The position numbers were made by a program, and so were the translations under genes. A stretch of DNA of 17,360 nt from a virus (taxonomy: Duplodnaviria; Heunggongvirae; Uroviricota; Caudoviricetes): IMG/VR virus record IMGVR_UViG_2645728010_000005; one strand, given 5' to 3'. The notes under the pieces are model-generated. The model saw only the letters and a list, made by a program, of their open reading frames with translations. It did no database searches and had not been told where the DNA came from. Shown here piece after piece: positions 1-16,341 of this stretch. Every line of letters starts with the position of its first letter. Position 1 is the stretch's first letter.

Positions 1-273
1 ATGTCAACCGGATTACGTTTCACACTGGAAGTGGACGGCCTGCCGCCGGATGCTTTTGCGGTGGTTTCCTTTCATCTGAACCAGTCACTCTCTTCGCTCT
101 TTTCCCTCGATCTCTCCCTGGTCAGCCAGCAGTTTCTCTCCCTTGAATTTGCGCAGGTGCTGGACAAAATGGCCTACCTGACGATATGGCAGGGCGATGA
201 AGTACAGCGCCGGGTGAAAGGCGTGGTGACCTGGTTTGAACTCGGGGAGAACGACAAAAACCAGATGCTGTAG
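1..273 (+). pseudogene. 5' fragment (~90 codons) of a VgrG-like gene (T6SS spike / Rhs-associated Vgr family)
   Basis: ORF 1..273 translates MSTGLRFTLEVDGLPPDAFAVVSFHLNQSLSS..., which I recognise as the conserved N-terminus of enterobacterial VgrG proteins (normally >600 aa). The frame stops at TAG 271..273, where tail-fibre homology on the opposite strand ends. Confidence 0.45.
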
Positions 274-718
274 CTGCATTCGTTTCTGAGGTTTTCGCCG
301 CGTTCTTCGATGATGCCGCTGCAGTTTCGGATTTCTTTGCCGCCGCTGCGCTCTGAGAGGCGGCTTCGGCGTTGCGTGCCGCTTCTTCCACCATTGCCTC
401 AAAACGACGCAATGCCTCCGGCATGACATCATCTTCCGTCATGGCACCGAGAAAATCATTCAGCGTACCTGGTCTGGAACCTTCATAGACGGTAATGGTT
501 CCGGCATGTGAAGGCGGAAAACCTTCAACCAGCAGGGTGACGCTGTACTGGCCATGCTCAACATCCATGCTGTAACGCCCGGCTTCATCCGGATTTTCAG
601 AGGCCACCGTGTTCACCAGTACCGTGGTGCTGTTACGCTTTGCCTTCAGTTGAATAGTGCAGTTCTGTATTGGTTTTCCCGCACCATCTTTCAGCACACC
701 TGAAATCTGTACTGCCAT
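122..718 (-). pseudogene. stf: Side tail fibre Stf, N-terminal fragment only (~155 codons of Stf-like sequence, 718 down to ~274, then out-of-frame read-through to the stop at 122)
   Basis: ATG at 718..716 with SD GGAGTG upstream. Translation MAVQISGVLKDGAGKPIQNCTIQLKAKRNSTTVLVNTVASENPDEAGRYSMDV... matches the lambda Stf N-terminus as I recall it. Full-length Stf is several hundred aa longer and no tfa follows. Confidence 0.6.
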
Positions 719-733
719 ATTCACTCCACAAAT

Positions 734-4002: not shown

Positions 4003-4200
4003 CGGCGACGATACAGCGCAGCTAAAAGGGTAATGGACAGAAAGAGCGGTTTATTTCATTCCACAGGATTCTGAGTGCCCCCCCTCCTCCAATAGGCTGA
4101 GCATCCACCTATATAGTTTTAATTTTCATCAATCCATTTAACTATCGTTTAATTGTTGTCACATAGGATTCTGCCGTTTTTAACAATGCAGGATAATAAG

Positions 4201-4494
4201 ATGAAAAAAATGTTGTTTTCTGCCGCTCTGGCAATGCTTATTACAGGATGTGCTCAACAGACGTTTACTGTTGGAAACAAACCGACAGCAGTAACACCAA
4301 AGGAAACCATCACCCATCACTTCTTCGTTTCGGGAATTGGACAGGAGAAAACTGTTGATGCAGCCAAAATTTGTGGCGGCGCAGAAAATGTTGTTAAAAC
4401 AGAAACCCAGCAAACATTCGTAAATGGATTGCTCGGTTTTATTACTTTAGGCATTTATACTCCGCTGGAAGCGCGTGTGTATTGCTCACAATAA
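4201..4494 (+). CDS. bor: Bor lipoprotein (serum-resistance, lysogenic-conversion protein)
   Basis: ATG 4201 with AGGA upstream; 97 aa MKKMLFSAALAMLITGCAQQTFTV... with lipobox LITGC. Near-identical to lambda Bor; opposite strand to the lysis genes, as in lambda. Confidence 0.9.
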   Translation: MKKMLFSAALAMLITGCAQQTFTVGNKPTAVTPKETITHHFFVSGIGQEKTVDAAKICGGAENVVKTETQQTFVNGLLGFITLGIYTPLEARVYCSQ

Positions 4495-4525
4495 TTGCAT
4501 GAGTTGCCCATCGATATGGGCAGCT

Positions 4526-4987
4526 CTATCTGCACTGCTCATTAATATACTTCTGGGTTCCTTCCAGTTGTTTTTGCATAGTGATCAGCCTCTCTCTGAG
4601 GGTGAAATAATCCCGTTCAGCGGTGTCTGCCAGTCGGGGGGAGGCTGCATTATCCACGCCGGAGGCGGTGGTGGCTTCACGCACTGACTGACAGACTGCT
4701 TTGATGTGCAACCGACGACGACCAGCGGCAACATCATCACGCAGAGCATCATTTTCAGCTTTCGCATTAGCTAACTCCTTCGTGTATTTTTCATCCAGTG
4801 CAGCAACATCACGCTGGCGCATCTGCATGTCAGTAATTGCCGCGTTCGCCAGCTTCAGTTCTCTGGCATTTTTGTCGCGCTGGGCTTTGTAGGTAATGGC
4901 GTTATCACGGTAATGATTAACAGCCCATGACAGGCAGACGATGATGCAGATAACCAGAGCGGAGATAATCGCGGTTACTCTGTTCAT
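4526..4987 (-). CDS. rzpD: Spanin, inner-membrane subunit Rz (i-spanin)
   Basis: [55 protein letters not shown]..., 153 aa with an N-terminal TM helix. The ATG overlaps the endolysin stop (ATGA). Confidence 0.85.
4585..4767 (-). CDS. rzoD: Spanin, outer-membrane lipoprotein subunit Rz1 (o-spanin), embedded in the +1 frame of Rz
   Basis: 60 aa [24 protein letters not shown]... with lipobox VVGC and a proline-rich core ([15 protein letters not shown]); lies entirely inside Rz. Confidence 0.8.
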
Positions 4988-5481
4988 TGCTGACCCCACA
5001 AACAGATTTCACGCTCAATCTCACGACGAGTCATGAGACCTTTCCATTGCTTACCGCCAGCATATGTCCAGCGACGTAGCTGATCACATGCGCCTTTGAT
5101 ATCGCCCTGGTTTATTTTGCGAAGAAGCGTCGATGTTCTGAAATTGCCAGCGCCCACGTTGTAAACGAACGAGTAAAGAGCGCCGCGCGTTGTTTCCGGT
5201 ATATCAACTTTTATGTACGGGTTAATTTGTCTGGCGACCGTGGCAAGGTCTTTATTCAGGAGGGCTTTGCATTCTGCTTTGGTATACGTTTTACCGAGCA
5301 TGATGTCTTTTCCTGTATGCCCGTGACATACAGTCCATACACCAACAATATCTTTGTATGGTATGTAGCTGACACCTTCCAGACCATCGTTACCACTTGG
5401 GCCAGTGATTAACACTGATGCTATAGCAATTGCTCCGCCACCAATAGCAGCAGCAACGGCTTTTCGTAATGATGGAGGCAT
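4984..5481 (-). CDS. rrrD: SAR endolysin (phage 21 R-type lysozyme with N-terminal signal-anchor-release domain)
   Basis: 165 aa; the N-terminus [27 protein letters not shown] is a weakly hydrophobic Gly/Ala-rich SAR segment, followed by a lysozyme-like body. Matches DLP12 RrrD / phage 21 R as I recall them. Confidence 0.9.
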
Positions 5482-5696
5482 TATTCACCTCTCGCAGCCT
5501 TGCGCTTATCTTCTTTAATCTTGAAATAAAGGTTTGTCAGGTACGTCAGCAGGCCAAATACCAGGCTACCCAGCACACCTATTGCTGCCCACTGTGAGGG
5601 CGTGACTTTATCGAGCAGCTGTAAAAACCAGTAACCGGCACTACCTGCTGAGGTGCCATAGGCGACACCCGTTGTTAACTTATCCATGGATTTCAT
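5481..5696 (-). CDS. essD: Class II holin / pinholin (phage 21 S-type) with dual-start motif M-K-S-M
   Basis: ATG 5696 with SD GAGGTG; 71 aa [71 protein letters not shown] with two TM segments. The track ORF start at 5741 is a TTG extension. Confidence 0.85.
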
Positions 5697-5911
5697 AACC
5701 CCACCTCGCAGACAAAGCGGGTGTAAATTGAGGGAATACAACGTATCGCAAAAAAGCAGAAACGTAACAGACTCGGAGTCAGTGAATAACTCAGGTATTG
5801 AGTTATCAGCTAATATCGAGACTCAAAAAATGGAAAAACCAGCTCGACGGCGGGTTTAAGCTGTGTGACGAAGTAACCACTCTTAACAGCATAACCAATT
5901 TTTTACGTACG

Positions 5912-6048
5912 TAAACCACTGAATGATATTTATGAGAATGCTACCGAGTGTTCAAAACACCACCACAAATATATAAGAAAACCTCAACAAATAACCAATA
6001 AATAATTTCCGGCGTTATTTTTAGTTGATTTAAATTAAACCACTGAAT
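5912..6048. repeat. 13-bp direct repeat TAAACCACTGAAT at 5912..5924 and 6036..6048 in the AT-rich porin upstream region
   Basis: Read directly from the sequence; both copies lie in the non-coding region 5742..6284. Confidence 0.6.
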
Positions 6049-6918
6049 TATAGAACCCCCATAAATAACAGCCATTAATATAAATTAGCTAATAGGTTTA
6101 TTTTTGTTCAAATAAGAGCCATAAATAGGTTTCGATAGAAAAAGTTCAGATAAAAATAGAGATCTACTTCACAAATTAAATGAGAAACTAAAACTTACAT
6201 CTTGAAATAATCACATTGATTAGATGAATATTTATCGCGCAGTGACATCATTTTTTAATAATAGTTCAAAAAAAAGGGCTCACGATGAAAAAATTAACAG
6301 TGGCAATTTCTGCTGTAGCTGCATCAGTACTGATGGCGATGTCTGCTCAGGCAGCTGAAATTTATAATAAAGACAGTAACAAGCTGGATCTGTACGGGAA
6401 AGTTAATGCCAAGCACTACTTTTCCTCTAACGATGCAGATGATGGTGATACTACTTATGCCCGTCTTGGCTTCAAAGGTGAAACCCAAATCAACGATCAA
6501 CTGACTGGTTTCGGTCAGTGGGAATATGAATTCAAAGGCAACCGCGCTGAATCTCAAGGTTCCTCCAAAGACAAAACCCGTCTTGCATTTGCAGGCCTGA
6601 AATTCGGTGACTACGGCTCAATCGATTACGGCCGTAACTACGGTGTAGCATACGACATCGGTGCGTGGACTGACGTTCTGCCAGAATTCGGTGGCGATAC
6701 CTGGACCCAAACAGATGTGTTCATGACTGGTCGCACCACTGGTGTTGCAACCTATCGTAACAACGACTTCTTTGGTCTGGTCGATGGCCTGAACTTTGCT
6801 GCTCAGTATCAGGGTAAAAATGACCGCACTGACGTAACTGAAGCCAATGGTGATGGTTTCGGTGGTGATGCTGCCAACTTACTGATTTAGTGTATGATGG
6901 TGTTTTTGAGGTGCTCCA

Positions 6919-7194
6919 GTGGCTTCTGTTTCTATCAGCTGTCCCTCCTGTTCAGCTACTGACGGGGTGGTGCGTAACGGCAAAAGCACCGCCGGACATC
7001 AGCGCTATCTCTGCTCTCACTGCCGTAAAACATGGCAACTGCAGTTCACTTACACCGCTTCTCAACCCGGTACGCACCAGAAAATCATTGATATGGCCAT
7101 GAATGGCGTTGGATGCCGGGCAACTGCCCGCATTATGGGCGTTGGCCTCAACACGATTTTACGTCACTTAAAAAACTCAGGCCGCAGTCGGTAA
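6919..7194 (+). CDS. insA: IS1 InsA (transposition inhibitor / N-terminal part of the transposase)
   Basis: 91 aa [43 protein letters not shown]... with a zinc-finger CxxC...CxxC; canonical InsA. Confidence 0.9.
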
Positions 7195-7616
7195 CCTCGC
7201 GCATACAGCCGGGCAGTGACGTCATCGTCTGCGCGGAAATGGACGAACAGTGGGGCTATGTCGGGGCTAAATCGCGCCAGCGCTGGCTGTTTTACGCGTA
7301 TGACAGGCTCCGGAAGACGGTTGTTGCGCACGTATTCGGTGAACGCACTATGGCGACGCTGGGGCGTCTTATGAGCCTGCTGTCACCCTTTGACGTGGTG
7401 ATATGGATGACGGATGGCTGGCCGCTGTATGAATCCCGCCTGAAGGGAAAGCTGCACGTAATCAGCAAGCGATATACGCAGCGAATTGAGCGGCATAACC
7501 TGAATCTGAGGCAGCACCTGGCACGGCTGGGACGGAAGTCGCTGTCGTTCTCAAAATCGGTGGAGCTGCATGACAAAGTCATCGGGCATTATCTGAACAT
7601 AAAACACTATCAATAA
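7113..7616 (+). CDS. insB: IS1 InsB reading frame (expressed as the InsAB' transposase by -1 frameshift)
   Basis: 167 aa ...[28 protein letters not shown]...; canonical InsB, overlapping insA in the -1 frame. Confidence 0.85.
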
Positions 7617-8153
7617 GTTGGAGTCATTACCGGTTTCGGTTTCTCCACTACTTATGAGTATGAAGGATTCGGCGTGGGTGCAACCTATGCTAAATCAGAT
7701 CGCACTGACGGTCAGGTCGCCTATGGTAAGAGCAAATTCAATGCCTCCGGCAAAAATGCGGAAGTATGGGCTGCAGGCCTGAAATATGATGCGAACAATA
7801 TCTATCTGGCTACCACATATTCTGAAACTCAGAATATGACCGTTTTTGGTAATAACCATATTGCAAACAAAGCACAAAACTTTGAAGCAGTAGCACAATA
7901 TCAGTTTGACTTCGGTCTGCGACCATCTGTTGCTTACCTTCAGTCAAAAGGTAAAGACCTTGGTGTTCATGGTGACCGAGACTTAGTCAAGTATGTCGAT
8001 GTCGGTGCTACTTACTACTTTAATAAAAACATGTCCACTTTTGTTGATTACAAAATCAACTTAATTGACGATAGTAAGTTTACCAAAACAGCTGGTATTG
8101 ATACCGACGACATCGTCGCTGTAGGTCTGGTGTATCAGTTCTAATCTGATTAC

Positions 8154-8194
8154 GAAAAAGATATGTTGCGGGAGGCTTTGCCTCCCCAACATAT
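8154..8194 (-). terminator. Intrinsic terminator on the minus strand (candidate tR' of the late leader); its hairpin also sits 17 bp after the porin stop on the plus strand
   Basis: Stem ATATGTTG-(C)-GGGAGGC / GCCTCCC-CAACATAT (8161..8194, loop ttt), followed on the minus strand by CTTTTT (complement of 8155..8159). Confidence 0.5.
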
Positions 8195-8282
8195 AAGTGG
8201 CTCCCTCAAGCCACTTCCTTTAGAAGCACAACCTTGCTTCTAACTATATAAACCTTCTGTTATATATTACCCTTTATTTTTG

Positions 8283-8316
8283 GGGGCGTCTCAACGCCCC
8301 ATTTTTAATAATTTTT
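8283..8316 (+). terminator. Plus-strand intrinsic terminator
   Basis: GGGGCGT-ctca-ACGCCCC hairpin (8283..8300) followed by ATTTTTAATAATTTTT. Confidence 0.4.
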
Positions 8317-8333
8317 AGTAAACAATTGGCATA

Positions 8334-8717
8334 TTAATTAGAGTTATTAACAACGATATCCATCTCTAACCGGATATCTAATGCCATTAACATCCCTTCA
8401 ATTATGCCCTCAGCCTTCTGTAACCTTTTCCCGATATAACCATCAGAGCAGCAATGCTTACCTGCCAGTGACATGAATGTCATACCGACTACATAATAAT
8501 CTACTAATAAATCATGCAAATCGCTGTTGTTCTTTTTCAGACGGGCCATGCACCCGCAAATGATCATCGCGTCATCGTCACAACATTGTGGGCGAGATTT
8601 TACTTTTGAAGGAATTAATCCCTTAAAACCGGCGGCAATGGACGACCAGGTCACATCTTCATGATTATTAGCCGCCCACGCTCCCCAACGCTCAAGAACC
8701 ATCTGAATATCACGCAT
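8334..8717 (-). CDS. quuD: Late-gene antiterminator Q (short, DLP12 QuuD-like)
   Basis: ATG 8717; 127 aa [24 protein letters not shown]... with a Cys-rich zinc-binding region ([16 protein letters not shown]). The track ORF has a 5-codon upstream extension. Confidence 0.85.
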
Positions 8718-10421: not shown

Positions 10422-11219
10422 TTACTCTCTGGAAGCTTTTCTTATCTCTCTTGGTGTTATATTAAAACGATTATGAAATCTTTCAGTAAAACGAGAAGGA
10501 CACTTATAACCATTTTCTCTGGCAATCTCGCTTATAGGTTTTACCGTCGTTTGTATAGCAGACAACGCATTATTTAACCTCACATCGTCCAGTATACTTT
10601 GGAAACTTACCCCCTCGCTTGCTAGACGGCGATGTAATGTAGAAACAGAAATGTAGAGATATCGAGCAACCTTGTTTGCTGTCCATTTTGTGCCGGGTTC
10701 GGATAGCAGCAGGTTATAACAACGACTTATCAATGATTGTTTACTATATGATAAAAGTAAATGATTAACATGATTCACTCCTAACGAAAGTAGAACGCCC
10801 ATTGCTAAGTGCTCCTGAATTTTAGTTGAGAAGCCTCGGGAAACAGATGTTTTTAGTTGCTCCCAACAATATATTAACTCAGGATTCTGAGGTAAAAAGA
10901 AACTTGTTTTGTTACGTATTTGATCAGTTACCGTATAAAGTTTTTGGAAACTCTCAATTAAATCAATGGGTAAGTAAAGCATTTCTGCAAGATAAAGCCC
11001 TGCTTCAGGATAATTCTCAATATAAAATTCATAACCACAAGGAAATAATATTATTTGATTATTATCAACAGTTAAAGTATGCGTCTCCCAATTGATAACT
11101 TTCTTTCCCTGACGGATACGACACAAAGCTGGCATAAGAGGCTTAACCCTATGAATCTCATGATGTTTATGCATCCGTATTTCTTCGATCTTTAAGTTAG
11201 TCTTACCTCTTGCCAGCAT
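10422..11219 (-). CDS. ybcM: AraC/XylS-family transcriptional regulator
   Basis: 265 aa; C-terminal dual-HTH AraC signature (...[42 protein letters not shown]...[21 protein letters not shown]). Confidence 0.85.
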
Positions 11220-11228
11220 ACTCTCACC

Positions 11229-11780
11229 CTACTTTATCTCATAAACTGGTGTTATCTCAGCGGTTGCGATTTTATTAGCATTAAGCATATAACCAACTAA
11301 CGCTCCGCTGGAGTTAGAATCTACAGGAATCTTTTCAGTTTTTAGAGCCCATACTTTAAACTGGTAATGATGTGGTTTATCTCCTTTAGGAGGACATGCG
11401 CCACCAAACCCAGCATAGCCAAAATCATTTCGGCCTTGAACAGCACCAGTCGGCAGTTTTGTTCCATCACGTCTCCCTGCATCAACGGGCAAATATGTTA
11501 CTGTTGCTGGAATATTAACAACAGTCCAATGCCACCAACCACTGCCTGTAGGTGCATCTGGATCATATACAGTTACGGCAAAGCTTTTGGTACCTTCAGG
11601 AACACCAGACCAGGTTAATGAGGGCGATGTATTACCACCTTCACACCCAAATCCAGAAAAGACATGAGACGTTGTAAGTTGCTCTCCTGTTTTTATTTCA
11701 TTACTAGTGACCTGAAATGCTGCAGCCTGCGCAGAAAATGTTATGAATGCCAATACAGTTGAAACGATAAGTGTTTTCAT
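11229..11780 (-). CDS. ybcL: Periplasmic PEBP/RKIP-family protein (YbhB/YbcL, UPF0098)
   Basis: 183 aa with signal peptide MKTLIVSTVLAFITFSAQAAA and PEBP motifs (DPDAP...GWWHW...HHYQFKVWAL). Confidence 0.85.
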   Translation of the reverse strand: MKTLIVSTVLAFITFSAQAAAFQVTSNEIKTGEQLTTSHVFSGFGCEGGNTSPSLTWSGVPEGTKSFAVTVYDPDAPTGSGWWHWTVVNIPATVTYLPVDAGRRDGTKLPTGAVQGRNDFGYAGFGGACPPKGDKPHHYQFKVWALKTEKIPVDSNSSGALVGYMLNANKIATAEITPVYEIK

Positions 11781-11996
11781 AAAAACCTCTTTGTTATGAC
11801 CTATCGTTATTTTATTTGATATTCCTTTATCTCATTATGCATAAAGGCGCAATGTTCATGCAAAAGCAATCACAATTGTACCCCCAACCCAATTATTTGC
11901 CACAATATACACAAAGCACATTGATACTATCTAAAAACTCTGCTTTATTATTAGTAATACCTACGAAAGTCGGTGTTATTTTTTAACCTACCATTC

Positions 11997-12046
11997 AAAA
12001 TACGTGACATACACCATTTTGCTCATAATAATTTGTCACGTATTTT
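11997..12046. repeat. 13-bp perfect inverted repeat AAAATACGTGACA (11997..12009) / TGTCACGTATTTT (12034..12046) with a 24-bp spacer
   Basis: Read directly from the sequence; lies in the ybcK-ybcL intergenic region about 200 bp below the ybcK stop. Confidence 0.65.
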
Positions 12047-12244
12047 CAGTATTTGAATCTGCGACCAAGAGTTCTCACCTAACAAATGATTAAGATTGTA
12101 TAGCTCATTTACTACCCCAATACAGCCGTACAAAACTCGCTTGTGGGAGCAAACAAAGTAATTACCCATTAAGTTTCGTTAAAGATAATTAATTCTGTCT
12201 TGCACTTTATCACCATAGCATAACTTAAAATCCGAGATCATTAT

Positions 12245-13771
12245 TTAGAAATAAATCTCACCATCAACCATATATTTGAGAGCACTTATCGCCTGCTGGG
12301 CGGATATTACTTTCATTAAAGGATAGTGTTTAAAAACAATGCCATTCATAAAATAGATATCACAGGTTTTATTATCCGTATTAATTATGATTTTTTCGAA
12401 TGTTTTATAGGCAAGTGTACGGCATAACTCTCGTCCATTTTTACTGGTTAAGTCAATAGCATAAAAATCACTGAATGAATTTACACCTTTACTCTTCAAA
12501 GTTTTCAATGATACCGAAGCCCTTCGTAATTCCTTATCTAATAGTCTTATTTTCTCTGCTATAGCGGTAACTTCAGGCGCGACAGACAATGCAACGATTA
12601 AATTATTAATTTTCATCTGAAGCTCAATAATTTTTAACTCTAAAGTTTCATTAGCATCTTTCTTGTTTTCAACTGGTTGAATTTTGCTACAATTAAAAAG
12701 CAATTCATTAATGATATTATAATCAACCAAATCTCTTTTTATTGATGGCCTGTCACATCGATGTAATCTTCTCATCGGACAAACATAATAGCCATGCAAA
12801 CTTCCAGATACCGCATGAACAATCATGGTATTACCACAAGCCTCACACTTCATAACTGTTCGAAGTAGATTTATTAGCATAGGATTCTTGCTACTATTGC
12901 TAATACCAAAAGGTGCCAACCGAATTTCCTGTACAGCGTAAAACAAATCATCTGATATGACTCTGGGATAATAGCCAGCGATTTCACTTATCCCTTTCCC
13001 TCTTGCACGATATGAAGGTACGCATATACCTATCAGAGCTTTATTCGCTAATAATTTTTCAATTACAGAAGGTCCCCATGCACTTTCTTTTCCTGAGAAA
13101 TTCTTTACAGCATGATCATTTAAATACTTGGCTATTGCATTCAATGAGCGCCTTTCCATCCTGAGTTTAAAAATTAGCTCAATAGTTTTCACCCTGTCGG
13201 GGTCTGGAACAAAAGCCGTTCTTTTGTCATCTAAGGAGAGCCATCTCGGACAAGACGCCGTCATAATCGTACCTGATTCCAGTGCATCCTGCCGTTTTTT
13301 CTTCCATGATAATTTAACCCGACTTGACTTTATCTCGCTTTCTTCATTTGCCCTTTGTGCTATAAGTATGGCTTTTATTAATGAATATGGCTCATTCAAA
13401 GAGTCAATATTATAGACTGTATTGTCGCAAAGAGTTATAACATCAATACCGTGATTCAAAATCAATTTCAGACGTTCAATCGCTTCACCGACTTTTTCTC
13501 TTGAAAGTCTGTCCAGACTTTCAACTAACAATGTAGTTCCTGGCAATATATAACCATGCTCTATAGCATCTAAAAATTCCGAAAAAGCTCCTGATTGTGC
13601 ATGCTTTCCTTTGAATGCACTTAATCCTAAATCTTCATATGTTATGGTATCAAGATAATAATCACTATTTACCTTTAACCATTCAGCAATAAGTCTTCTC
13701 TGTCGGTTTAATGAGTCGCCAGACATCTGACCTGGTGATGAAAATCGCATATATGCTATGGCTTTTTTCAT
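12245..13771 (-). CDS. ybcK: Large serine recombinase (resolvase-like catalytic domain, recombinase domain, Cys-rich zinc-ribbon region)
   Basis: 508 aa; N-terminus MKKAIAYMRFSSPGQ carries the catalytic-serine motif of serine recombinases; Cys cluster CEACGNTMIVH...YYVCPMRRLHRCDRP; coiled-coil-like C-terminal region. Confidence 0.85.
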   Translation of the reverse strand: MKKAIAYMRFSSPGQMSGDSLNRQRRLIAEWLKVNSDYYLDTITYEDLGLSAFKGKHAQSGAFSEFLDAIEHGYILPGTTLLVESLDRLSREKVGEAIERLKLILNHGIDVITLCDNTVYNIDSLNEPYSLIKAILIAQRANEESEIKSSRVKLSWKKKRQDALESGTIMTASCPRWLSLDDKRTAFVPDPDRVKTIELIFKLRMERRSLNAIAKYLNDHAVKNFSGKESAWGPSVIEKLLANKALIGICVPSYRARGKGISEIAGYYPRVISDDLFYAVQEIRLAPFGISNSSKNPMLINLLRTVMKCEACGNTMIVHAVSGSLHGYYVCPMRRLHRCDRPSIKRDLVDYNIINELLFNCSKIQPVENKKDANETLELKIIELQMKINNLIVALSVAPEVTAIAEKIRLLDKELRRASVSLKTLKSKGVNSFSDFYAIDLTSKNGRELCRTLAYKTFEKIIINTDNKTCDIYFMNGIVFKHYPLMKVISAQQAISALKYMVDGEIYF

Positions 13772-13950
13772 GGTGACACCTGCTAACGTATGCTTTTATA
13801 AACCTTAGTGGTGGGATATAATTTTTGTTTAATTTTTATTTAAAAAGACAATTAAGGTCACATTATCTTGAATATACAACAATAATCGTATTGCAATTTT
13901 CTTACGCCATAATCTTGAAAGCACAAAAGAATACATAAAAAATAAAGACA

Positions 13951-13996
13951 TTAACAAAAAGCATAAAACGAGGCTCATATAAATATAAGAGCCTCC
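13951..13996 (-). terminator. Putative intrinsic terminator downstream of emrE
   Basis: Stem GAGGCTC/GAGCCTC (13970..13976 / 13989..13995) with a 12-nt AT loop, followed on the minus strand by a T-rich run (GTTTTATGCTTTTTG). Confidence 0.35.
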
Positions 13997-14025
13997 ATAT
14001 TTTAGTCGTTTAGAAACAAATTATT

Positions 14026-14358
14026 TTAATGTGGTGTGCTTCGTGACAATAAATTAATAACCAACACACCGGCACAAATCAACATCATGCCTATAATGGC
14101 TGGCAGGTCCAGCCGTTGGCCGAAAAATCCCCATAACAGTAAGCTAATCAGGACAATACCGACTCCTGACCAGATACCATAAGCAATCCCTGTAGGAATA
14201 TAAGCCAGCGTCTGAGCTAATAACCAGAATGATGCACAATAACAAATAATTGTACCAACAGATGGCCATAACCGTGTAAAACCTTCTGAAAACTTCATTA
14301 AGGTTGTACCAATGACCTCTGCAAGTATTGCACCACCAAGATAAATATAAGGGTTCAT
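14026..14358 (-). CDS. emrE: EmrE small multidrug resistance (SMR) efflux transporter
   Basis: ATG 14358; 110 aa MNPYIYLGGAILAEVIGTTLMKFSEGFTRLWPSVGTIICYCASFWLLAQTLAYIPTGIAYGIWSGVGIVLISLL..., four TM helices with the conserved membrane Glu14. The track ORF has an 18-codon upstream extension. Confidence 0.95.
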   Translation of the reverse strand: MNPYIYLGGAILAEVIGTTLMKFSEGFTRLWPSVGTIICYCASFWLLAQTLAYIPTGIAYGIWSGVGIVLISLLLWGFFGQRLDLPAIIGMMLICAGVLVINLLSRSTPH

Positions 14359-14697
14359 AGCATATTCTTTCCTGTTCAAACTGGAGAGAATTGTACTACA
14401 GTTTGAACTCAACTCACCTGTTTCATCATTGTGTTCCCATTGATGTTCTTTTATATACCCTCAGTACCCGTTTCATCGCGGCACTCTGGCGACACTCCTT
14501 AAAAATCAGATTCGTGCTCACCTTTCCTTCCCGTTCTTCTCTGGTAGCGAACCGGTAATACACCGTTCGCCAGACCTTACCATCAACGACCAGGATTCCT
14601 GCCCGCGCCATTTTAGCCGCAGCCTGATTTATGCTGGTTACGGTTGCACCTGTTGGCCCGCATGTTCTGGTACAAGTTGGTAACCAACCAGTAAGCA

Positions 14698-15063
14698 ATG
14701 GGATATGCCTCTGGTTATGTCTGGTTGAATCCACCATACAGCAATATTTCCCCTTTTGTGAAAAAGGCAGCCACTGAAAACAAATTCAGCAGTGTGGGAT
14801 GTGTAATGTTATTACCTGCTGACACATCTGTCGGATGGTTTCATGAAGCGATACAAACCGCCAGTGAGGTCAGATTCATCACGGCAGGACGACTGGCATT
14901 TATTAACCCACTCACCGGGAAACACGTCAGTGGAAATAATAAAGGCTCGATGCTCATTATCTGGCACCCATACCCCCGTACACACTGCCACTTTACGACC
15001 GTTGATCGTGGAGAGTTGATGGCGTTCGGCTCAAGGATTCTTGCCCGTCGGGAGGCTGCATGA
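14698..15063 (+). pseudogene. Phage Dam-type N6-adenine DNA methyltransferase, probably a 5'-truncated remnant
   Basis: 121 aa MGYASGYVWLNPPYSNISPFVKKAATENKFSSVGCVMLLPADTSVGWFHEA...; the NPPY catalytic motif sits at residues 11..14 and an in-frame TAA lies 4 nt upstream of the ATG. In the phage Dam family as I recall it, about 60 aa precede this motif. Confidence 0.5.
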
Positions 15064-15139
15064 CAACCACGGAATGCATTTTTCTGGCAGCGGGCTTCAT
15101 ATTCTGTGTGCTTATGCTTGCCGACATGGGACTTGTTCA

Positions 15140-15355
15140 ATGACACCTCAGCAGGAAAACGCCCTTCGCAGCATAGCCCGTCAGGCTAATTCTGAAATCA
15201 AAAAAGCCAGACAGCAGTTTCCGGATAAAAACGTCGATGACATTTGCCGTAGCGTACTGAAGAAGCACCGCGAAACGGTAACGCTGATGGGATTCACACC
15301 GACTCATTTAAGCCTGGCGATCGGCATGTTAAACGGCGTCTTTAAGGAGCGATGA
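15140..15355 (+). CDS. Hypothetical small early-left phage protein (71 aa from ATG 15140; the track ORF starts at 15041)
   Basis: Open frame MTPQQENALRSIARQANSEIKKARQQFPDKNVDDICRSVLKKHRETVTLMGFTPTHLSLAIGMLNGVFKER; start site uncertain; no family recognised. Confidence 0.3.
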   Translation: MTPQQENALRSIARQANSEIKKARQQFPDKNVDDICRSVLKKHRETVTLMGFTPTHLSLAIGMLNGVFKER

Positions 15356-15453
15356 ACATGAAAAGCAAAATCATCAGGGAGCTACAGGCTCCTTTTTTAT
15401 TATTCGCATTCACCCTCAAGCGTATTAACCAACAATTCAGGGATTAATGGAAG

Positions 15454-15672
15454 ATGGCAGACATCATTGATTCAGCATCAGAAATCGAAGAATTACAGCG
15501 CAATACAGCAATAAAAATGCGTCGTCTGAACCACCAGGTTATATCTGCCACTCATTGTTGTGAGTGTGGCGATCCCATAGATGAACGAAGACGCCTGGCC
15601 GTTCAGGGTTGTCGGACTTGTGCAAGCTGCCAGGAGGAGATCGAACTTAAGAACAAACAATGGGGATTGTGA
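15454..15672 (+). CDS. TraR/DksA-family C4 zinc-finger protein (phage-encoded)
   Basis: 72 aa with two CxxC pairs (HCCECGDPID...GCRTCASCQ) at TraR-like spacing. Confidence 0.6.
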   Translation: MADIIDSASEIEELQRNTAIKMRRLNHQVISATHCCECGDPIDERRRLAVQGCRTCASCQEEIELKNKQWGL

Positions 15673-15719
15673 TGGCCTCAAAGCAGCAAATTTCAACATC
15701 GTCCAACTGAGGTGTAAAA

Positions 15720-15998
15720 ATGTTCAGAATCATTTTGCCTAACACCTGGTACGTCGACCACCACGGCACTCCCTGCAAAATCCTGCGTTCTACCCACAAC
15801 AAAGTTCACTACATCCGAAAAGGCAGAACATGTATCGCCAGCATGTTCCGCTTTAATCATGACTTTGAACCTGTGAATAAAGCTGATGCAGATCGGATAG
15901 CAGAAGAGATCGAAACGGCAGAACACATTAAGAAGTTACGTGACATGCGTTCAAAAAGCAGAGGTAACCATGGAATCATACAGCCTCACACTCGATGA
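15720..15998 (+). CDS. Hypothetical early-left phage protein (92 aa)
   Basis: ATG 15720 with SD GAGGTG; MFRIILPNTWYVDHHGTPCKILRSTHNKVHYIRKGRTCIASMFRFNHDFEPVNKADADRIAEEIETAEHIKKLRD...; no family recognised with confidence. Confidence 0.4.
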   Translation: MFRIILPNTWYVDHHGTPCKILRSTHNKVHYIRKGRTCIASMFRFNHDFEPVNKADADRIAEEIETAEHIKKLRDMRSKSRGNHGIIQPHTR

Positions 15999-16341
15999 GG
16001 CCTGTCAGTTTCTTAAGATATCCAGACCAACCGCCACCAACTGGATACGAACAGGCCGCCTACAGGCAACACGTAAAGATCCAACCAAGCCAAAATCTCC
16101 TTACCTCACAACACGGCAAGCCTGCATTGCGGCGCTTCAGTCTCCGCTGCATACTGTCCAGGTGAGCGCGGGTGATGGCATAACAGAGGAAAGAAAATGT
16201 CACTCTTCCGCAGAAATGAAATATGGTATGCCTCGTATTCGCTCCCGGGCGGGAAACGAATTAAGGAATCTCTTGGCACAAAGGACAAGCGGCAAGCTCA
16301 GGAGTTGCACGACAAGCGAAAAGCAGAACTCTGGCGAGTAG
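15970..16341 (+). CDS. xis: Excisionase / AlpA-like HTH DNA-binding protein (extent uncertain; overlaps the integrase start by ~145 nt)
   Basis: ATG 15970 with SD GAGGT; N-terminus [36 protein letters not shown] is a typical AlpA/Xis-type HTH; the C-terminal ~45 codons overlap int in another frame. Confidence 0.5.

Follow-up and report, generated by a model that had tools for sequence, protein, structure and literature searches.

Four uninterrupted reading frames on the minus strand fill positions 4526-5696 of the window, the whole 17,360-nt stretch of DNA analysed here, and encode a holin (essD), an endolysin (rrrD) and an embedded pair of spanin components (rzpD and rzoD). A sequence-only reading of the same DNA had placed four lysis genes with open frames at exactly these positions; we confirmed the frames and found strong Pfam matches to all four. 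The gene names it used agree with RefSeq and with the K-12 annotation, and it was right throughout in identifying an intact set: a pinholin of the phage 21 type with a dual start for antiholin and holin, a SAR endolysin, and a spanin with one gene embedded in the other. The features of the cassette and its flanks are:

4201..4494, plus strand: bor/iss lipoprotein gene, a moron (PF06291, 6.4e-31), convergent with the cassette; a neighbour, not a lysis gene
4526..4987, minus strand: rzpD, i-spanin, 153 aa (PF03245, 4.3e-54)
4585..4767, minus strand: rzoD, o-spanin lipoprotein, 60 aa (PF06085, 2.9e-20)
4984..5481, minus strand: rrrD, SAR endolysin, 165 aa (PF00959, 1.3e-45)
5481..5696, minus strand: essD long form, 71 aa, S21-71-type antiholin, starting at Met1 of MKSM (open reading frame, PF04971)
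5481..5687, minus strand: essD short form, 68 aa, active pinholin, starting at Met4, the second in-frame ATG (5687..5685)
5699..5707, minus strand: Shine-Dalgarno sequence GAGGTGGGG of essD (from the sequence), within a predicted hairpin at about 5699-5722
5697..5920, minus strand: essD leader, near-identical in B, K-12 and phage ev207 (three-way alignment)
6285..8144, plus strand: nmpC porin gene in two Porin_1 halves, split by IS1, between quuD and essD on the opposite strand
6864-7631: IS1 within nmpC, 768 bp, with IS1 ends and the 9-bp target duplication GGTTTCGGT
8334..8717, minus strand: quuD, Q-type late antiterminator (PF06530, 8.5e-54, and annotation), intact, the upstream regulator of the cassette

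Reverse-complemented, the window matches positions 533908-551267 of the Escherichia coli BL21(DE3) genome (NC_012971.2) exactly, and its cassette is 100% identical to that of REL606. Along the minus strand, the RefSeq gene order starts with intD, several early-region fragments, emrE, ylcJ, ybcK, ybcL, ybcM and ybcN, continues with ninE, ybcO, rusA, ylcG, quuD, the IS1-split porin gene, essD, rrrD and rzpD, and ends with bor/iss, ylcI, the Nu1 terminase small-subunit gene, a truncated tail-tip J gene and a truncated tail-fibre N-terminus, the last three being the only structural remnants in the window. The order is syntenic with annotated DLP12, the backbone is 99.0-99.8% identical to that of DLP12 in K-12, and the matching BL21(DE3) region follows tRNA-Arg (argU). 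The window thus covers the defective lambdoid prophage DLP12, with intD next to the tRNA gene at one end and a truncated open reading frame at the other. Several features are flagged in RefSeq as partial pseudogenes, and neither the window nor its RefSeq annotation contains head, capsid, portal or tail/tail-shaft genes, or the immunity and replication genes cI, cro, N, O and P. The prophage had been described from the letters as defective and unable to form virions, and this label is correct, because the genes for virion morphogenesis, immunity and replication are absent. An Rfam scan of the whole window gave zero hits at gathering thresholds.

Gene products and joints

EssD matches the Pfam family 'Bacteriophage P21 holin S' (PF04971) over residues 5-67 with E = 2e-35 and 121 bits (cut-off 26). 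The MKSM dual start claimed in the sequence-only reading is there: ATG AAA TCC ATG at 5696..5685 encodes Met1-Lys2-Ser3-Met4, in the same arrangement as the annotated S21-71/S21-68 pair of phage 21 (OL657228), and would yield a 71-aa antiholin and a 68-aa holin. The protein is identical to S21 at 61 of 71 positions (86%). All ten substitutions are conservative, those in or near the transmembrane domains (TMDs) including W27L, L47F and F49L, and the alignment shows residues G40, G43, S44 and G48 unchanged. Hydropathy is weak for TMD1 (residues 10-28, below threshold) and strong for TMD2 (peak at 36-54). Carrying residue roles over from S21, we take G40xxxS44xxxG48 to be the glycine zipper of TMD2 and TMD1 to be the releasable, Gly/Ala/Ser-rich segment. 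EssD is thus predicted to be a two-TMD class II pinholin of the S21 type; a structure search found no solved structures for the holin. Its sequence is identical to those of K-12 EssD and of the holins of phages ev207, PhiR68_2, 434B and mEp332. The same protein, its ten differences from S21 included, serves viable phages.

RrrD differs from R21 at a single position (164/165, M98T), residues 1-97 being identical; it is likewise 164/165 identical to the crystal structures 4zpu (K-12 RrrD), 3hde and 3hdf (both R21), and 100% identical to the mEp332 endolysin. The catalytic codons for E35 (5379-5377), D44 (5352-5350) and T50 (5334-5332) are present, and the N-terminus is Gly/Ala-rich with a hydropathy peak at residues 8-26. 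This N-terminus is probably an uncleaved signal-arrest-release (SAR) segment, and by homology the protein as a whole can be classified as an R21-type SAR endolysin of the GH24 / T4-lysozyme fold, with the predicted triad Glu35-Asp44-Thr50.

RzpD combines an N-terminal transmembrane helix (residues 4-23) with a coiled-coil periplasmic domain and the cysteines C99 and C152, and differs from its counterparts in phage 21 (Rz) by 5 residues (148/153 identical), in ev207 by 2 and in mEp332 by 0. rzoD lies wholly within rzpD in the +1 frame (offset 220 nt; 220 mod 3 = 1) and encodes a signal peptide, the lipobox VVGC with Cys20 (4710-4708), Thr21 at +2 (non-Asp), and a proline-rich mature part with C29; it is identical to phage 21 Rz1 in protein (60/60) and DNA. 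RzpD and RzoD would therewith form a two-component spanin of the embedded Rz/Rz1 architecture. As a practical point, the embedded rzoD is unannotated in the RefSeq records of both BL21(DE3) and REL606.

The joints had been given as ATGA in both cases. This holds for R-Rz, where the rzpD start overlaps the rrrD stop, but not for S-R, which reads GAATAATGCC: here the TAA stop of essD and the ATG start of rrrD share one base (a 1-nt overlap), and the same TAATG is found in phage 21 and K-12. The S-R genes are still overlapping and translationally coupled, and the error is one of detail, not of substance. Alignment to phage 21 S/R/Rz/Rz1, the comparison that had been proposed for exposing damage, revealed neither frameshifts nor stops, and every residue known to be critical was unchanged. 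Because the mEp332 proteins are identical, RrrD matches R21 and 4zpu at 164 of 165 residues and RzoD equals phage 21 Rz1, the coding sequences of the cassette are almost certainly functional. In the literature, we found no experiment on the B/BL21 allele.

Lysis pathway and expression

The phage 21 cassette is the paradigm of pinholin-SAR endolysin lysis, and the steps of this pathway are established. We consider it very probable that the cassette is the DLP12 lysis module of E. coli B/BL21(DE3) and works, when expressed, by this canonical pathway. EssD would be made in two forms from MKSM, of which the 68-aa pinholin would build up in the inner membrane, and the 71-aa form, its extra Lys slowing the release of TMD1, would act as antiholin and delay triggering. 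RrrD would be exported through Sec and held tethered and inactive by its N-terminal SAR segment. At the trigger time, the TMD2 glycine zipper of the pinholin would give rise to small pinholes that depolarise the membrane without letting the endolysin through; depolarisation would in turn free the SAR domain, whereupon RrrD would refold with an active E35-D44-T50 site and degrade the murein. The complex of RzpD, in the inner membrane, and RzoD, an outer-membrane lipoprotein, would span the periplasm and then fuse both membranes and so remove the outer-membrane barrier.

In K-12, the module is transcribed and confers a lytic phenotype from a plasmid copy, and its deletion raises vesicle production 3.6-fold (PMC7918800). 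As cited in that paper, the module has been tied to biofilm and cell-wall maintenance (Toba 2011), placed under the control of Q (Rueggeberg 2013) and of RpoE (Rueggeberg 2015), and found to be lost in Shigella (Leuzzi 2017). Hha toxicity and lysis have been linked to the DLP12 lysis genes in K-12, where the module responds to Hha (PMC2408971), and microarray data from a REL606 background showed altered transcript signals for the DLP12 lysozyme gene and for rzpD (PMC2817434). The cassette is thus already known, with its genes in RefSeq, a crystal structure of the endolysin and studies of lysis, biofilm, vesicles and regulation in K-12, and is of little weight as a discovery; the inducible-expression experiment suggested by the sequence-only reading has, in essence, already been done for the K-12 allele.

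Expression of the B copy depends on the region upstream of essD. The roughly 220 nt before the gene hardly vary between B, K-12 and ev207, the K-12 leader lacking 16 nt (window 5744-5759). Directly upstream of essD, no convincing promoter emerged from a sigma-70 scan or from a fuzzy motif search that covered sigma-E-like and relaxed sigma-70 sequences. A predicted fold pairs the essD Shine-Dalgarno sequence with the upstream CCCGCUUUG; its energy is no better than that of shuffled sequences (z = 0.28), nor is that of the different hairpin of phage 21 (z = 0.21), and an RNA hairpin sequestering the Shine-Dalgarno sequence at the dual start was rejected as a candidate. The late promoter would lie at 8145-8333, just downstream of quuD. 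To reach essD from there, late transcripts would have to run through about 2.6 kb of antisense nmpC::IS1 (breakpoints placed by alignment to the intact ev207 porin gene), so we can only infer that the B copy is expressed, and the IS1, located between quuD and essD, could lower late transcription.

Taken further, this would mean that the cassette is intact in its coding sequences but functionally dead in this strain, a recent pseudogene-in-waiting whose expression is blocked by the nmpC IS1 or by the loss of the early regulatory region. Consistent with such a block, quuD is left without its normal pR-driven expression, given the absence of N, cI, cro, O and P, the 768-bp IS1 sits between quuD and essD, and no consensus promoter immediately precedes essD. 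On the other hand, the transcript changes seen in the REL606 background (PMC2817434) speak for expression, and the analogous IS5 in K-12 nmpC blocks neither transcription nor phage-driven lysis. The latter is documented by 434B, a clear-plaque, lytically propagated derivative of phage 434 in which a syntenic segment from DLP12 of K-12, carrying Q, the late promoter, the lysis genes and nmpC::IS5, has taken the place of about 5.5 kb (PMC9119081), and whose four lysis proteins equal those of K-12. As 434B is viable with this segment, the K-12 DLP12 module drives the lysis of a viable phage; and as the segment includes nmpC::IS5, Q-dependent transcription can cross an IS-interrupted nmpC. Nor is the decay recent, since the prophage has decayed to the same architecture in K-12 and in B; this argues as well against the recent decay offered by the sequence-only reading as one explanation for the retention of the cassette. 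We therefore regard a silenced cassette as improbable.

Selection, decay or exchange with phages

The other explanation that had been offered for retention is selection for the cassette, with dN/dS proposed as a check. Between B and K-12, the backbone is 99.0-99.8% identical and the nmpC-to-bor block 93.8%, with a patchy distribution of differences: S and the part of Rz that overlaps Rz1 are near-identical, divergence reaches 4-5% in R and the 5' half of Rz, and it is higher still in the intergenic and bor regions. By the Nei-Gojobori method, R has dS = 0.18 and dN/dS = 0.014, and S+R+Rz(1-73) together have dN/dS = 0.07, with 31 synonymous against 8 non-synonymous changes (Fisher p ~6e-14). 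The value is thus low, but it is unreadable as selection inside the prophage. We rejected it as evidence of selection in place, dS being twenty-fold above the flanking divergence; this excess implies that the substitutions did not accumulate in place and that the block was exchanged with other lambdoids, and in such a mosaic block the low dN/dS records selection in phages.

Cassette DNA is 95.9-99.2% identical to that of many sequenced lambdoid phages. In line with an exchange, the window cassette differs by 4 nt from that of mEp332 and by 10 nt from that of ev207, both viable phages, compared with 40 nt from K-12 DLP12. The cassette may then have no host role at all and persist neutrally, silent enough to escape counter-selection, while homologous lambdoid phages overwrite and so refresh it. 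The patchy divergence from K-12 and the greater proximity to viable phages are what such refreshing predicts, 434B documents exchange in the opposite direction, and laboratory evolution easily removes the locus: 10 of the 12 E. coli B populations in the long-term evolution experiment lost the DLP12-like locus (PMC4173774). For Ara-1, the only population whose coordinates are published there, the deletion is IS1-mediated and spans 547,701-555,877 (PMC4173774); mapped onto REL606, it begins at the boundary of the nmpC IS1 and takes out all of essD (548,867-549,082), rrrD and rzpD. The cassette is dispensable under laboratory conditions. Loss in this experiment may, however, reflect the rate of IS1-driven deletion and a single artificial environment, and a module that is wholly silent or neutral is hard to square with the phenotypes published for K-12. 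We see neutral persistence with recombinational refreshing as a serious possibility, somewhat short of probable.

These K-12 phenotypes also speak for domestication, in which the host keeps the cassette under purifying selection in the prophage because its low-level expression is beneficial, be it in peptidoglycan turnover, curli and biofilm formation, vesicle control or stress-triggered altruistic lysis. The 3.6-fold rise in vesicles upon deletion, the transcription of the module and its described control by RpoE, Hha and Q (PMC7918800, PMC2408971) accord with it, as does the biofilm and cell-wall role (Toba 2011, as cited in PMC7918800), and the dN/dS of 0.07 could at face value be added. 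Against it stand the dS of R, 0.18 relative to a backbone divergence of at most 1%, by which the ratio reflects selection in phages, the reported losses in the long-term experiment, that of Ara-1 taking essD, rrrD and rzpD with it, and the loss of the module in Shigella (as cited in PMC7918800). The full ybcL-to-bor arrangement occurs in 491 of 5426 complete E. coli genomes in a long-query search, which is not a clean frequency of cassette retention and can be held up on either side, as persistence or as presence in only ~9% of genomes. Hits to ybcL-ybcM only were rejected as cassette-less DLP12 remnants, as in CX15 emrE-ybcL-ybcM adjoin fliE outside any prophage. Domestication appears unlikely to us, and the suggestion that retention points to selection did not hold up: with dS above the backbone divergence and the locus repeatedly lost in B, exchange with live lambdoid phages fits better.

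Rather than strong selection by the host, the best explanation for the intact cassette is, we infer, that it belongs to a pool of lambdoid genes that recombine with one another; a modest benefit to the host may contribute. Rather tentatively, the DLP12 lysis block could be seen as a two-way 'spare-parts' locus, overwritten by incoming lambdoid phages and donating Q-S-R-Rz modules to them, as in 434B. Repeated overwriting would explain why the cassette differs by 4 synonymous nucleotides from mEp332 yet by 40 nt from K-12; if this were true, it would be the phage gene pool that keeps the cassette intact, and any host benefit would be secondary. The lesson for method is that, where a prophage segment is a mosaic shared with live phages, a low dN/dS of one of its genes must not be taken for selection at the level of the host. 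For users of BL21(DE3), the main protein-production strain, the result is that it carries a complete and probably competent lysis module, which could add to culture lysis under envelope stress.

Comparison with known lysis systems

Among the closest known systems is the DLP12 (qsr') module of K-12 MG1655 (b0554-b0556, b4510; rrrD = ybcS), which belongs to the same prophage, has the same gene order and the same flanks (quuD, nmpC, bor, ylcI, Nu1), and encodes an identical EssD, an RrrD identical at 164 of 165 residues and an RzoD identical at 59 of 60. In contrast to this conservation, the two cassettes differ at 40 of 1171 nt (3.4%), RzpD at 7 residues (95% identity) and RzoD by P34R in K-12; K-12 rzpD starts with GTG, which turns the joint into GTGA, and K-12 nmpC is split by IS5, whereas in the window it is split by IS1 at another site.

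Viable phages with the same arrangement are mEp332 (PV340541.1), ev207 and PhiR68_2, which share the layout Q, reverse-oriented porin gene, S, R, Rz/Rz1 and bor. mEp332, which forms plaques and is titred by plaque assay (PMC3442831), has four lysis proteins that are 100% identical to those of the window, with all 4 differences in 1171 nt synonymous, and the nmpC-to-bor block of ev207 is 98.2% identical over 3.4 kb. All three differ from the window in that their porin gene is unbroken and their head, tail and immunity regions are complete, the window being a remnant without them.

Phage 21 (OL657228) shows the same gene lengths, gene order, overlaps (TAATG, ATGA), embedded Rz1, MKSM motif and downstream bor, and its annotation as S21-71 antiholin, S21-68 pinholin, SAR endolysin, i-spanin and o-spanin has lengths and internal offsets as in the window. 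Its S allele, however, has diverged (51/216 nt and 10/71 aa), homology with the window ends 1 nt upstream of the S start codon, and upstream of S it carries another Q and two tRNA genes, and no nmpC. The more distant S105/S107 - R - Rz/Rz1 cassette of lambda has in common with the window a dual-start holin/antiholin, an endolysin, an embedded spanin pair and a Q-dependent late operon. It differs in its holin, S of lambda being a class I, three-TMD, large-hole holin and that of the window a two-TMD class II pinholin (PF04971), and in its endolysin, R of lambda being a soluble cytoplasmic transglycosylase and that of the window a predicted SAR lysozyme, probably exported through Sec.

Lysis block and embedded o-spanin gene

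Across the nmpC-essD-rrrD-rzpD-bor block, the DLP12 prophage of the E. coli B lineage is 93.8% identical to that of K-12 (window 4147-6826 against 11585-14251 of L007, the MG1655 copy), while the remaining DLP12, outside this nmpC-to-bor block, is 99.0-99.8% identical between the two. K-12 has a GTG start codon in rzpD and the substitutions P34R in RzoD and I159V in RrrD, each K-12-specific, as well as a 16-nt deletion upstream of essD that corresponds to window 5744-5759. Within the block lies a further gene:

4585-4767, - strand: rzoD, the embedded o-spanin gene

This gene, to which phage 21 Rz1 is identical, is absent from the annotation of the RefSeq records for BL21(DE3) (NC_012971.2) and REL606 (NC_012967.1), but is annotated in K-12, as b4510.

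Prophage end, early-left region and cargo genes

1-273, + strand: truncated Phage_GPD/VgrG-like ORF, facing the next
122-724, - strand: truncated tail-fibre N-terminal ORF
14426-16196: early-left region, with a DUF4222 gene, a TraR/DksA-like gene, a partial N6-adenine methyltransferase gene and a ren fragment

At the far end of the prophage, the tail-tip pseudogene of REL606 is longer and is accompanied by a complete tail-fibre gene of 2.3 kb, so that window 1-724 marks a deletion junction peculiar to the BL21(DE3) type. This end is directly followed by cusS; the equivalent end of DLP12 in K-12 has appY and ompT. The early-left region, parts of which are 90-94% identical to phage 21, has no counterpart in K-12 DLP12, where xisD, exoD and peaD fragments and an IS3 are found instead. 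The cargo genes emrE-ybcL-ybcM lie within DLP12 here (window 10422-14412), and in E. coli strain CX15 they adjoin fliE, outside any prophage, at ~90% identity (NZ_CP081742.1, locus L008, 8520-10379); they may have been captured by DLP12 from the chromosome, or have moved in the opposite direction.

Porin gene and hairpins upstream of the cassette

6285-8144, + strand: nmpC porin gene, split by IS1, between the antiterminator gene quuD and essD
6864-7631: IS1, 768 bp, inside nmpC
8145-8333, - strand: quuD-nmpC spacer, with several strong hairpins
5699-5722, - strand: predicted hairpin at the essD start, pairing the Shine-Dalgarno with upstream CCCGCUUUG

The IS1 is flanked by a 9-bp target duplication, GGTTTCGGT (window 6855-6863 and 7632-7640), and the 8.2-kb deletion by which the long-term evolution population Ara-1 lost the lysis cassette has its left end at this element (PMC4173774). 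K-12 nmpC is instead interrupted by IS5, at a different site, and in phages ev207 and mEp332 the porin gene is uninterrupted. The spacer hairpins (GGGGCGTTGAGACGCCCC, GAAGCAAGGTTGTGCTTC, AGTGGCTTGAGGGAGCCACT and GGGGAGGCAAAGCCTCCC, then a T-run), for which an Rfam scan of the whole window at gathering thresholds gave no match, could be the terminator region close to the late promoter, the terminator of nmpC, or serve as both. The essD Shine-Dalgarno hairpin, whose predicted energy is not better than that of shuffled sequence (z = 0.28), would resemble the lambda structure governing the proportion of antiholin to holin, and the homology of phage 21 to the window stops 1 nt upstream of the essD start codon.
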